NCBI RefSeq assembly: GCF_024502345.1
Contig: NZ_JALDNN010000001.1
Length of the DNA stretch: 64,000 nucleotides
Source of the DNA: Escherichia coli
GTDB lineage: Bacteria; Pseudomonadota; Gammaproteobacteria; Enterobacterales; Enterobacteriaceae
Direction: 5' to 3' (one strand)
Below the pieces are notes generated by a model. That model made no database searches. It was not told the DNA's origin and worked only from the letters and a program-made list of their open reading frames with translations. This document shows, piece by piece, positions 61,302 through 64,000 of this stretch (the first letter of the stretch is position 1; every line of letters starts with the position of its first letter). The position numbers and the translations under genes are program-made.

Positions 61302-61994
61302 CTAGTGATAACCACGCGCGGTCATAAAATCCGTAATCGCTTTTTCTGCATCAACTAACACCTGTTCCAGTGGCTGATTGGCGTCGATATCAACCAGTTG
61401 TGCACCACCAAAGGTTAACTGTGGCGTTATGGCTATCTTTCTTGCCAGCGATTCCCTTTTGTGGTCAGGCTTACGCGCGCAGGCCACGTCTAGATCGACA
61501 TTGAGTTTGATGACCAGATCAGGCTTATGGCTCGCCATCCAGTGAAACGCTTTACGTTCCTGGCTTGCCAGCCATGAGACAAAACGACCACCTTCAACGT
61601 TAGGTGGGAACACCGTACCATCGTAAGCGCCAGGAATTTGGTCCTGAGGATAACGGTCGGTTAGAACAATTAACCCGCGACGACGACAGGCAAGCATATG
61701 ACGAAAGCGCAGTAAGCGACGGGCGACAAACGCTGTAATTACCAGCGCCGGAACTGGTCCTGGCAATTTTTTTGCTGTTTTCACCTGATTTCGTTCAATT
61801 GTTTTATGTAAGGATTTTCCCATCAACGGTAATTTTGTCACTGCACGACCGACATTTCCGGCTTGTTTTCCTAAATGAACTCTTTCGGCAGCACCATATT
61901 TTTCGACAACGGTAATGAGATGTTCACACACCGTTGACTTGCCTGAACCATCGCTACCAATAACGGCAATTAATGGAGGTGTTATTGACTGCAT
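61302..61994 (-). CDS. yghT: P-loop NTPase of unknown function, 230 aa
   Basis: Walker [10 protein letters not shown]; paralogous to yghS and yghR. Confidence 0.85.
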
Positions 61995-62167
61995 GAATAT
62001 ATCCTTAAATTTAAATATCCATCCAAAATATTTATTTGGTTAATATGTTTTTATGAAAGCGTAATTCAGGTCAATGTCACAATTAACCATTGTCACAATA
62101 AGGTTGAATGGATATTCTGAGCACGGACCACGTAATATTCAATACATTATTTACTGCCGGGTTTTTC

Positions 62168-62881
62168 GTGAATCAACGTAATATGTCAATAATTAATTCC
62201 ACGCCAGTGCGTGTTATTGCCATTGTAGGATGTGATGGTTCAGGTAAATCGACCCTCACGGCAAGCCTGGTAAATGAACTGGCAGCAAGAATGCCAACAG
62301 AACGCATTTATCTCGGGCAATCGTCCGGGCGAATTGGCGAATGGATTTCACAGCTCCCTGTTATTGGCGCACCTTTTGGGCGTTATCTGCGAAGTAAAGC
62401 GGCACATGTGCACGAAAAGCCCTCAACACCGCCTGGCAATATTACTGCGCTGGTTATCTATCTGCTTTCCTGCTGGCGGGCGTACAAGTTTCGCAAAATG
62501 TTGTGTAGAAGCCAGCAAGGCCATCTGCTCATCACCGACCGCTACCCGCAGGTTGAAGTGCCGGGTTTTCGCTTTGATGGCCCGCAATTGGCAAAAACCA
62601 CGGGCGGTAACGGTTGGATAAAAATGTTAAGGCAGCGCGAGTTGAAGCTGTACCAATGGATGGCGTCTTATTTACCCGTATTGTTGATTCGTCTTGGCAT
62701 TGATGAACAAACCGCGTTTGCGCGTAAACCTGACCACCAACTGGCAGCGTTACAGGAAAAAATCGCCGTTACGCCGCAACTGACATTCAATGGCGCAAAG
62801 ATCCTTGAACTGGATGGTCGGCAACCAGCCGATGAAATTATGCAAGCGTCACTACGCGCAATTCACGCCGCGCTTTCCTGA
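62168..62881 (+). CDS. yghS: P-loop NTPase of unknown function, ~237 aa
   Basis: Walker A GCDGSGKST; track ORF starts 62108; in-frame GTG at 62168 gives the recalled 237-aa length; start uncertain. Confidence 0.8.
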   Translation: MNQRNMSIINSTPVRVIAIVGCDGSGKSTLTASLVNELAARMPTERIYLGQSSGRIGEWISQLPVIGAPFGRYLRSKAAHVHEKPSTPPGNITALVIYLLSCWRAYKFRKMLCRSQQGHLLITDRYPQVEVPGFRFDGPQLAKTTGGNGWIKMLRQRELKLYQWMASYLPVLLIRLGIDEQTAFARKPDHQLAALQEKIAVTPQLTFNGAKILELDGRQPADEIMQASLRAIHAALS

Positions 62882-62912
62882 TCACCAAAATGGATAGGGG
62901 ATGATTTAACGA

Positions 62913-63671
62913 ATGGATGCACTACAAACACAAACTGTTATTAGTACAACCGCGCCGCAGCCCAACTACATTCCGGGGCTGATTGCGGTGGTCGGGTGTG
63001 ATGGCACCGGTAAATCCACACTGACCACCGACCTGGTGAAATCGCTGCAACAACACTGGCAAACCGAGCGCCGCTATTTGGGGCTGCTCTCGGGCGAAGA
63101 CGGCGACAAAATAAAACGATTGCCGTTGGTTGGCGTCTGGCTGGAACGGCGACTGGCGGCCAAATCCTCGAAAACCCAAAGCATGAAAACCAAATCTCCG
63201 GCGCTATGGGCGGCGGTGATTATGTACTGCTTCTCGCTGCGAAGAATGGCGAATCTACGCAAGGTTCAGCGACTGGCGCAAAGTGGCGTTCTGGTGGTCA
63301 GCGATCGCTTCCCGCAGGCTGAAATTTCGGGCTTTTATTATGATGGACCGGGGATTGGCGTCGAACGTGCGACCGGGAAAATAAGCATGTTTCTGGCGCA
63401 GCGCGAACGGCGTTTATACCAACAAATGGCGCAATATCGCCCGGAATTAATTATTCGCCTGGGCATTGATATTGAGACTGCCATCTCCCGCAAGCCTGAC
63501 CATGACTATGCCGAGCTGCAGGACAAAATCGGTGTTATGTCGACGATTGGCTATAACGGCACAAAAATTCTTGAGATTGATTCCAGAGCGCCCTACAGCG
63601 AAGTGCTGGAACAGGCACAGAAGGCGGTTTCTCTGGTTGCCATCGTTTCTGACCGCCGAAGTTTAACTTAA
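62913..63671 (+). CDS. yghR: P-loop NTPase of unknown function, 252 aa
   Basis: Walker A GCDGTGKST; third paralog. Confidence 0.85.
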   Translation: MDALQTQTVISTTAPQPNYIPGLIAVVGCDGTGKSTLTTDLVKSLQQHWQTERRYLGLLSGEDGDKIKRLPLVGVWLERRLAAKSSKTQSMKTKSPALWAAVIMYCFSLRRMANLRKVQRLAQSGVLVVSDRFPQAEISGFYYDGPGIGVERATGKISMFLAQRERRLYQQMAQYRPELIIRLGIDIETAISRKPDHDYAELQDKIGVMSTIGYNGTKILEIDSRAPYSEVLEQAQKAVSLVAIVSDRRSLT

Positions 63672-63704
63672 GGCTGGCGGGATACTTTTTACTATCAACG
63701 ATAA

Positions 63705-64000
63705 GGTCAGGCTGAATTAGCGGGTTTTAACATCAAACATTGGTTTGCAGATGGCGCGTTTCGCACCATTATTCGCAATAGCGCCTGGTTAGGCTCCAGT
63801 AATGTCGTGAGCGCCTTGCTGGGTCTGTTGGCGCTCTCGTGTGCCGGTAAAGGGATGACGCCCGCCATGTTTGGCGTACTGGTGATTGTACAATCGTACG
63901 CCAAGTCGATCAGCGATTTTATTAAGTTTCAGACATGGCAGCTGGTGGTTCAGTACGGAACACCAGCATTAACCAACAATAATCCGCAGCAATTCCGCAA
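63705..64000 (+). CDS. yghQ: Polysaccharide-transporter-like (MOP flippase family) inner membrane protein, 5' part only; runs off the window
   Basis: Open frame from 63705 to window end (…FADGAFRTIIRNSAWLGSSNVVSALLGLLALSCAGKGMTPAMFGVLVIV…); no in-frame ATG before 63852, so the start (possibly GTG 63807 or non-canonical) is unresolved. Confidence 0.5.

Follow-up and report, generated by a model that had tools for sequence, protein, structure and literature searches.

What do three neighboring genes for related P-loop proteins do at a single chromosomal locus of Escherichia coli? The genes yghT, yghS and yghR lie, together with the start of the flippase gene yghQ, at the end of a 64,000-nucleotide stretch of contig NZ_JALDNN010000001.1 (assembly GCF_024502345.1), hereafter the window. 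An earlier reading of the sequence (the original prediction) had taken the three genes as the outcome of a gene triplication and as conserved but uncharacterised. The latter holds, as no experimentally assigned function was found for any of them in the literature searched. The comparisons presented here point to three different P-loop kinases from the thymidylate-kinase superfamily, each catalytically competent, which are very probably a functional part of a sphingolipid module. We favor, tentatively, a reading in which the trio, the flippase YghQ and a helical protein that resembles the CHAD domain form the head-group and export arm of a proteobacterial sphingolipid locus, and in which the kinases would phosphorylate the lipid head group sequentially before it is flipped across the membrane.

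The kinase trio and its three clades

The region is part of the E. coli chromosome: positions 61254-64000 of the window share 99.7% identity with strain DSM 103246, and at least 80% of this segment is present in 4603 of 5426 complete E. coli genomes. The three open reading frames, of 230, 237 and 252 codons, and the divergence of yghT from yghS-yghR-yghQ were confirmed. Their boundaries, with the ratio of nonsynonymous to synonymous substitution rates (dN/dS), are as follows.

61302-61994, minus strand: yghT, 230 amino acids, T clade kinase of the trio with a predicted thymidylate-kinase fold; dN/dS 0.04-0.06
62168-62881, plus strand: yghS, 237 amino acids, S clade kinase, GTG start; dN/dS 0.08-0.15
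62913-63671, plus strand: yghR, 252 amino acids, R clade kinase; dN/dS 0.04-0.15
63717-64000, plus strand: yghQ, 5' part; gene for a flippase of the MOP family (Polysacc_synt), cut by the end of the window; the intact protein has 449 amino acids

Full-length BLASTP comparisons showed that the three proteins are paralogs. YghT shares 37% identity with YghS (E 7e-54) and 34% with YghR (E 3e-47), and the identity between YghS and YghR is 44% (E 3e-63). All three carry the Walker A motif G[SC]DG[ST]GKST, the motif DR[YF]PQ and the lid motif RKPDH. Walker A and RKPDH had been named in the original prediction; the common C-terminal pattern quoted with them does not extend to YghR, whose C-terminus (GVMSTIGYNG) departs from it. 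An AlphaFold2 model of YghS, built from a 52-sequence alignment (score predicted for the local distance difference test, pLDDT, 91; predicted template modeling score, pTM, 0.87), supported the expected P-loop kinase type and placed it in the thymidylate-kinase superfamily. When the model was laid on thymidylate kinase, 166 of its 237 residues superposed and about 70 helical residues on the acceptor side did not. Profile searches agreed, with only the P-loop and the C-terminal segments of the trio aligning with thymidylate kinase. As modeled, the trio would have the thymidylate-kinase fold with its P-loop, DRX motif and lid.

RefSeq names the proteins "dTMP kinase". This label is not supported at the family level because the scores fall far below the cut-offs: 22-32 bits for TIGR00041, where the curated cut-off is 83.25, and 17-25 bits for NF005923 (dTMP kinase), where it is 193. 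The Pfam Thymidylate_kin family (PF02223) was matched with an E value of 0.05, and all Pfam and NCBIfam matches, which were to P-loop and thymidylate kinase families, remained below threshold. A bona fide dTMP kinase (equivalog) was ruled out on these grounds. The trio also differs from Tmk proteins (TIGR00041/PF02223) in its genomic context, which is that of lipids and the envelope rather than nucleotide metabolism. Other identities were considered and rejected. An ATPase of the ABC-transporter or BY-kinase type is contradicted by the nucleotide-kinase fold of the model, the corresponding Pfam matches being limited to the P-loop. A role in anti-phage defense found no match among the PADLOC models, where similarity was at the level of the P-loop with E values no better than 2e-4. 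Homology to the Caulobacter ceramide kinase CpgB was ruled out, since CpgB has the diacylglycerol-kinase fold with a GGDG motif whereas YghT, YghS and YghR are P-loop kinases.

The distribution of the family was then examined in two collections. Among 1.84 billion representative proteins, a profile search retrieved 2525 relatives with E values up to 1e-3, and a scan of species-representative genomes yielded 80 loci, which were compared by tblastn with 13 proteins of the E. coli cluster (individual loci are cited below by their L numbers). Two to four adjacent paralogs were present in nearly every scanned locus. In a neighbor-joining tree of 228 kinase domains from 81 loci, every domain fell in one of three clades, T (73 domains), S (79) or R (76). 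All three clades are represented in 63 of the 81 loci, 53 of which have the gene order T on the minus strand followed by S and R on the plus strand, and T, S and R are co-inherited across the alpha-, beta-, gamma- and deltaproteobacteria. Since each domain belongs to one of the three clades, the triplication predates the spread of the module across the Proteobacteria. Hence, the paralogy on which the original prediction relied is real, and the trio represents three old orthologous lineages instead of a local event.

The catalytic residues are maintained in all of them. The Walker lysine K27, the P-loop aspartate D23, D124-R125, R186-K187-P-D189-H190, E158 and D137 are 99-100% conserved within each clade, R125, the DRX arginine, reaching 100% in all three. 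Each clade has its own fixed residues at positions 48, 51 and 134. The retention of the catalytic residues together with clade-specific positions points to three active enzymes with differing acceptor pockets. The dN/dS values of 0.04-0.15, obtained against other Escherichia, Pseudocitrobacter and Citrobacter, indicate purifying selection.

Sphingolipid genes and other neighbors of the trio

In DSM 103246, yghQ is followed by genes for a 274-amino-acid hypothetical protein, a periplasmic YtfJ-family protein and paralogs of LptF and LptG. Next, on the other strand, are spt and the genes for an acyl carrier protein, an epimerase-family reductase and a fatty acyl-AMP ligase, and then yghO. The genes spt, acpR, cerR (epi), aasR and yghO (aca/bcerS, ceramide synthase) are the published sphingolipid genes of E. 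coli BL21 (PMC9386255). LptF2 and LptG2 are needed for sphingolipid transport in Caulobacter, and the preprint that describes this draws the E. coli UTI89 locus (bioRxiv 10.64898/2026.04.12.717747). The link of the trio to a flippase and the envelope, proposed at the outset, is real by genomic context. The suggested role in nucleotide-activated precursor or polysaccharide metabolism was too vague and is probably wrong, as the neighbors are spt, acpR, cerR, aasR, yghO and the genes for LptF2/G2. Glycosyltransferases and head-group enzymes of the CpgABCD type are missing from the DSM 103246 annotation of the locus.

The 7.5-kb segment from the 274-amino-acid protein gene to aasR is present, at a coverage of at least 80%, in 4069 of the 5426 complete E. 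coli genomes (about 75%). In the K-12-like strain TUM22768 (L005, 7758-9952), the C-terminus of yghQ is missing beside an IS5 element and yghO is kept, and the genes for the 274-amino-acid protein and the YtfJ-like protein, lptF2, lptG2, spt, acpR, cerR and aasR are gone. This IS5-linked deletion in K-12 explains the orphan look of the trio in the reference strain.

Similar neighborhoods were found in other bacteria. Within the fetched flanks (up to 10 kb), spt accompanied by cerR or aasR was detected in 36 of the 38 Enterobacterales-like loci. The spt operon lies upstream or downstream of the trio, or is inverted with respect to it, depending on the genus, and the gene set is rearranged in Serratia and Erwinia. 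The same combination was detected in 11 of the 42 other loci, including those of Rhodanobacter, Luteibacter, Carnimonas, Sulfuritalea, Gallionellaceae, Rhodocyclaceae and Methylotenera. The non-enterobacterial Spt proteins are 55-61% identical to that of E. coli, and acpR, cerR, aasR and yghO are usually found alongside. Several betaproteobacterial metagenome-assembled genomes (MAGs) have a minimal locus consisting of a PAP2 gene, T, the 274-amino-acid protein gene with S and R, flippase-spt-acpR-cerR-aasR, and yghO. The sphingomonads and Acetobacter have a collinear S-R-T-yghQ arrangement, after which the 274-amino-acid protein gene comes in the two sphingomonad loci. In these genomes spt lies elsewhere, in line with the scattering of sphingolipid genes already known for this group. 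Taken across the classes, the trio, the flippase gene and the CHAD-like gene stand beside sphingolipid genes in gamma- and betaproteobacteria and occur without a nearby spt in alphaproteobacteria. Two loci with other taxonomic titles, a "Pseudomonas sp." MAG (L019) and "Martelella alba" (L026), contain an Enterobacterales-like whole cluster with about 70% identity to that of E. coli, which suggests mis-binning, contamination or recent transfer.

Genes for two kinds of lipid-phosphate enzymes recur near the trio. One encodes a PAP2 lipid-phosphate phosphatase (Pfam E 7e-21), which adjoins T in 10 of the 42 non-enterobacterial loci. These are beta- and gammaproteobacterial MAG loci, and in one of them (L080, 7126-7815) the gene is convergent with T. 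The Serratia locus has a different PAP2 gene at its margin (L002, 18400-19227). The other is a DgkA-like gene located directly beside yghO in 16 of the 20 Enterobacterales-like loci with yghO in range and also in Carnimonas, 17 loci in total. The product, 120 amino acids long with a DAGK_prokar domain (L003, 1419-1781), is encoded in Serratia, Pantoea, Erwinia, Rosenbergiella and Sodalis-type loci as well as in Carnimonas, and is possibly a dedicated ceramide kinase. The E. coli locus has no DgkA-like gene beside yghO, which is followed there by glcC.

The wider kinase family includes fusion proteins, with either a MOP flippase and an NTP_transf_5 domain or a GT4 glycosyltransferase as the fusion partner. 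In an uncultured organism (L089, 5721-9482), a gene within a Wzx/Wzy cluster encodes an NTP_transf_5-like plus YghS-like kinase protein and overlaps the stop codon of a MOP flippase gene. This cluster also holds genes for an ATP-sulfurylase, a sulfotransferase, GT4 and Wzy_C, and a second, distantly related P-loop kinase gene follows. The fusions and the translational coupling indicate that the partnership of kinase and flippase is general in the wider family. No counterpart of the CHAD-like protein was found in this Wzx/Wzy polysaccharide locus.

The gene for that protein begins the segment that follows yghQ.

L001 (DSM 103246), 15813-16637, just past the end of the window: 274-amino-acid hypothetical protein (family members roughly 275 amino acids) with a predicted CHAD-like fold

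The structure model of this protein (pLDDT 94.6) is all-alpha, with an apparent two-bundle fold resembling that of CHAD domains. There are 57 homologs in the 81 loci scanned, and the invariant residues of the family are mostly arginine, lysine and histidine (R60, R88, K92, H93, R95, H105, H193, R196 and H237). One homolog, 60% identical, has the UniRef name "CHAD domain-containing protein". Some loci have tandem pairs of the gene (L046, L047 and L048), and there are two-copy proteins of 561-564 amino acids (P0270-P0275). Internal duplication within the 274-amino-acid protein itself was not significant. It showed no similarity to the NTP_transf_5-like N-terminal domain of the roughly 500-amino-acid kinase relatives, and an apparent fusion to YghQ in Sphingobium (L076) turned out to be a long out-of-frame open reading frame in high-GC DNA. 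CHAD domains bind polyphosphate and occur in operons with polyphosphate kinases (bioRxiv 10.1101/567040). In Sulfolobus acidocaldarius, adjacent "thymidylate kinase" paralogs (Saci_2019 and Saci_2020) constitute PPK3, a heterotetrameric polyphosphate kinase, one subunit of which is regulatory and lacks the DRX arginine; their operon also encodes a CHAD protein and PPX (PMC12995831). This archaeal operon is the closest known system to the E. coli locus.

Candidate functions and related systems

Neither a glycosyltransferase nor Cpg enzymes are encoded in the E. coli locus, so the simplest head group would be phosphate. In the scheme that we favor, ceramide would be synthesized by Spt, AcpR, AasR, CerR and YghO (bCerS) on the cytoplasmic side of the inner membrane. 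It would be converted to ceramide-1-phosphate by the DgkA-like kinase encoded beside yghO in many relatives, by the housekeeping DgkA, or by one member of the trio. E. coli DgkA phosphorylates ceramide in vitro. The trio would then extend ceramide-1-phosphate, at the expense of ATP, to a di- or oligophosphate head group, with one acceptor pocket per enzyme. The chemistry would be that of nucleoside monophosphate (NMP) kinases, a phosphoryl transfer onto a phosphate monoester, which is ancestral for the enzymes of the trio. The basic, histidine- and arginine-rich CHAD-like protein may bind the oligophosphate, YghQ may flip the anionic lipid, and LptF2/G2 may extract it towards the outer membrane. 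We infer, then, a sphingolipid head group as the substrate, sequential steps and an oligophosphate as the product, and these parts differ in probability. Phosphorylation of a lipid head group by the trio is plausible, although short of probable, and the formation of an oligophosphate chain is rather unlikely. The most specific version, a ceramide-anchored oligo- or polyphosphate that is built by the trio, chaperoned by the CHAD-like protein and exported through the MOP flippase and LptF2G2, is in our judgment unlikely.

Several observations weigh against the favored scheme. About 530 E. coli genomes, K-12 included, have the trio without the sphingolipid genes (4603 genomes compared with 4069), and spt is within 10 kb of the trio in 14 of the 42 non-enterobacterial loci, about 60% being without it. 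Relatives of the kinases reside in Wzx/Wzy polysaccharide clusters without any sphingolipid genes, which leaves room for a different acceptor. In the literature searched, no E. coli sphingolipid was reported, and no description of ceramide di-, tri-, oligo- or polyphosphate was found. Unlike in PPK3, the DRX arginine is kept by every paralog of the trio. No ppx, ppk or SixA gene was noticed among the annotated neighbors (RefSeq for E. coli, Pfam for Serratia and Erwinia, NCBIfam for L080), and the 80 loci were not searched for these genes. All attempts to connect the 274-amino-acid protein to CHAD domains by sequence were negative: none of 30 family members matched CHAD (PF05235) or any other Pfam family, the family profile matched no sequence in the PDB, and hhalign assigned a probability of 0.3% to its relationship with the CHAD domain of YgiF. 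What remains is the fold and one UniRef label, and the link to CHAD is therefore a likeness of fold, not membership. As the likeness is seen at the level of modeled folds, it may reflect convergence, to which helical bundles are prone.

The parallel with PPK3 gives rise to another interpretation, in which the trio and the CHAD-like protein would be a heteromeric kinase for free polyphosphate rather than for a chain on a lipid. The polymer would serve as phosphate or energy donor for ceramide phosphorylation, or it would be exported with the lipid. The trio resembles PPK3 in that at least two adjacent paralogs with the thymidylate-kinase fold are present in one locus. However, there are three of them instead of two, and none is of the regulatory type, R125 being fully conserved in all clades. 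The sequence similarity of the trio to PPK3 does not exceed that to ordinary thymidylate kinases, st1543 is not a closer match to YghS than such kinases are, and the likeness of the partner to CHAD is structural only. The annotated neighborhoods contain no ppx, SixA or pst genes. The trio is located in a locus for lipid synthesis, a flippase and Lpt-like export, and its tight coupling to the MOP flippase and lipid genes would be left unexplained. E. coli, moreover, already has PPK1. We consider this interpretation distinctly unlikely. The kinases could instead act on hydroxyl groups in the manner of deoxynucleoside kinases, using a ceramide or long-chain base (C1-OH, C3-OH or acyl 2-OH) or a small precursor of the head group, for example glycerate or a sugar, and leading to mono-phosphorylated sphingolipids that have no phosphoanhydride chain. 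This is doubtful, because the best matches are thymidylate kinases, which phosphorylate a phosphate acceptor, and the P-loop aspartate and the DRX arginine are of the thymidylate-kinase type. In addition, many loci already have a DgkA-like lipid kinase gene beside bcerS, and the CHAD-like partner would have no explanation.

The names given by RefSeq, the weak matches to TIGR00041 and Pfam Thymidylate_kin and the thymidylate-kinase fold would be compatible with kinases of dTMP or other NMPs and dNMPs that supply or recycle nucleotides for envelope synthesis and are loosely tied to the lipid genes. Scores of 22-32 bits against a cut-off of 83 and the superposition of only 166 of 237 residues make this very improbable. 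An essential tmk gene is present elsewhere in E. coli, and three conserved paralogs with flippase fusions in the family would not be expected of nucleotide salvage. Finally, the proteins could be non-enzymatic or regulatory ATPases that gate or assemble YghQ or LptF2G2, or their clustering could be functionally meaningless. Such a reading would account for the fact that MOP flippases steadily adjoin the kinases or are fused to them, in sphingolipid as in polysaccharide loci, and for the persistence of the trio in K-12 without the lipid genes. It is quite improbable, since the full catalytic set of a kinase, including the lid and DRX, is conserved and the proteins differ in fold from ABC ATPases and BY-kinases. 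In Caulobacter, LptF2G2 works with LptB, and many loci with the trio have no LptF2G2. The clustering has also outlasted several rearrangements.

Two further systems are relevant to the head-group scheme. The Caulobacter crescentus locus includes spt, acpR, cerR, aasR, bcerS, cpgABCD, the flippase gene CC_1166 and the genes for LptF2/G2/C2. The five ceramide genes, the Polysacc_synt-family flippase (CC_1166) and the LptF/LptG paralogs are common to this locus and that of E. coli. In Caulobacter, CpgB, a ceramide kinase with the diacylglycerol-kinase fold (GGDG), acts together with CDP-alcohol and nucleotidyl transferases to produce ceramide (di)phosphoglycerate. The description of that locus has no thymidylate-kinase-like trio and no CHAD-like gene, whereas the enterobacterial locus has both in place of cpgABCD. 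LpxK, the lipid A 4'-kinase, sets a precedent, being a P-loop kinase whose substrate is a membrane lipid bound for Lpt-type export. LpxK differs from the trio in its sub-fold and in having an N-terminal membrane anchor, and it was absent among the fold and sequence matches listed.

Gene boundaries, the intergenic region and implications

The order of genes in this part of the window is pitB (plus strand), a hairpin, yghT (minus strand), an AT-rich spacer, and then yghS, yghR and the start of yghQ (all on the plus strand). The features outside the coding sequences are the following.

61263-61291, no strand: terminator-like hairpin with a G+C-rich 12-pair stem followed by a T run, CCATTTTTGG, between the convergent pitB and yghT
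61995-62167, no strand: yghT-yghS spacer, 173 bp, AT-rich divergent promoter region, G+C fraction about 0.30
62072-62083, plus strand: repeat copy 1, CAATGTCACAAT (9-mer at 62075-62083), partly conserved outside Escherichia
62088-62099, plus strand: repeat copy 2, CATTGTCACAAT (9-mer at 62091-62099), overlapping the predicted -35
62090-62095, plus strand: predicted -35, TTGTCA, a consensus match located 17 bp from the -10
62113-62118, plus strand: predicted -10, TATTCT, within the conserved block GATATTCTGAGCAC; consensus match only

The hairpin is likely a terminator common to pitB and yghT, judging by its sequence and position. The length of the spacer depends on the start codon of yghS. The shared promoter region of 113 bp originally described rests on an ATG at 62108-62110, a codon that is ACG in all seven records compared (four other E. 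coli and three further Escherichia). This ATG, which is preceded by AAGG, adds a strain-specific upstream extension of 20 codons to the yghS open reading frame. The 257-amino-acid form and the 113-bp spacer were dropped as the ATG is peculiar to this strain. RefSeq puts the start at a GTG at 62168, in agreement with the orthologous N-termini, which gives a spacer of 173 bp (61995-62167) and a YghS of 237 amino acids. Another start codon differs in yghQ. Its annotated TTG (63717-63719) is TTA in the window and TTG in DSM 103246, in the K-12-like strain and in Escherichia sp. E1V33. With the next in-frame ATG, GTG or TTG about 90 nucleotides downstream, the start of the flippase may be lost or shifted here. 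Upstream of the locus in DSM 103246, an ISVsa5 (IS4-like) insertion interrupts hybC (L001, 2545-5586).

The G+C fraction of the spacer is about 0.30, compared with 0.50-0.55 in the genes. It contains a direct repeat in which CA[AT]TGTCACAAT occurs twice, 16 bp from start to start (TGTCACAAT-N7-TGTCACAAT). The 9-mer TGTCACAAT occurs three times in the window, where 0.46 occurrences are expected, and three were reached in 2 of 100 shuffles. The two copies also form an imperfect palindrome, ACAAT-N5-ATTGT. The direct repeat reported at 62079-62103 thus exists, and its correct position, 62075-62099, is four bases upstream. Spacers of 171-177 bp from Escherichia, Hafnia (L013), Pseudocitrobacter, Shimwellia and Citrobacter amalonaticus can be aligned and have three conserved blocks. 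The first, CAAT-TA-N3-ATTGTCAC, corresponds to copy 2 and part of copy 1 and contains the palindrome; the others are GATATTCTGAGCAC and GTAATATaCAAT. Blocks 1 and 2 coincide with the predicted -35 and -10 hexamers. The repeat is invariant in the Escherichia records compared except that copy 1 carries a single substitution in E. whittamii (TGCCACAAT); this invariance says little because these sequences are about 98% identical anyway. The motif is absent from the spacers of Serratia, Erwinia, Pantoea, Rahnella and Klebsiella indica. This absence from orthologous promoters, found in the first four of these genera, speaks against the original proposal that the repeat is a regulator binding site. 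A conserved operator was rejected, as only copy 2 persists between genera and it overlaps the predicted -35. By its placement, copy 2 may simply be the -35 element, and a dedicated regulator site is possible. By eye, the repeat did not resemble the consensus sequences of CRP or FNR. Published data place yghS in the H-NS regulon, with a 3.1-fold induction upon SlyA over-expression (PMC5797941), and a genomic SELEX (gSELEX) peak of FlhDC lies in the yghT-yghS spacer (PMC9962212). The core of the spacer is flanked by a 13-nucleotide inverted repeat, AATATCCATCCAA (62014-62026) and TTGAATGGATATT (62104-62116), which is 92% complementary and whose arms vary among E. coli strains.

The genes themselves and the E. 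coli sphingolipid locus were already known. A description of the trio as the three-clade kinase module of that locus, of its CHAD-like partner or of the parallel with PPK3 was not found in the literature searched. On our reading, yghT, yghS and yghR, which are function-unknown genes of K-12, turn into candidate genes for the head-group enzymes that have been missing for enterobacterial-type sphingolipids, those without CpgABCD. The whole locus is present in about three quarters of complete E. coli genomes, those of pathogens and BL21 included, and its lipid could matter for the outer-membrane barrier, for sensitivity to polymyxin and detergents and for host recognition, as is the case for the sphingolipids of Caulobacter. 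The resemblance to PPK3 and its CHAD protein suggests, by analogy, a second and independent recruitment of thymidylate-kinase paralogs to phosphoanhydride chemistry. If a ceramide-anchored oligo- or polyphosphate is indeed made by this module, it would represent a bacterial membrane lipid of a new class, a functional analogue of the phosphorylated lipid A anchor, and polyphosphate biology would gain a new branch directed at lipids.

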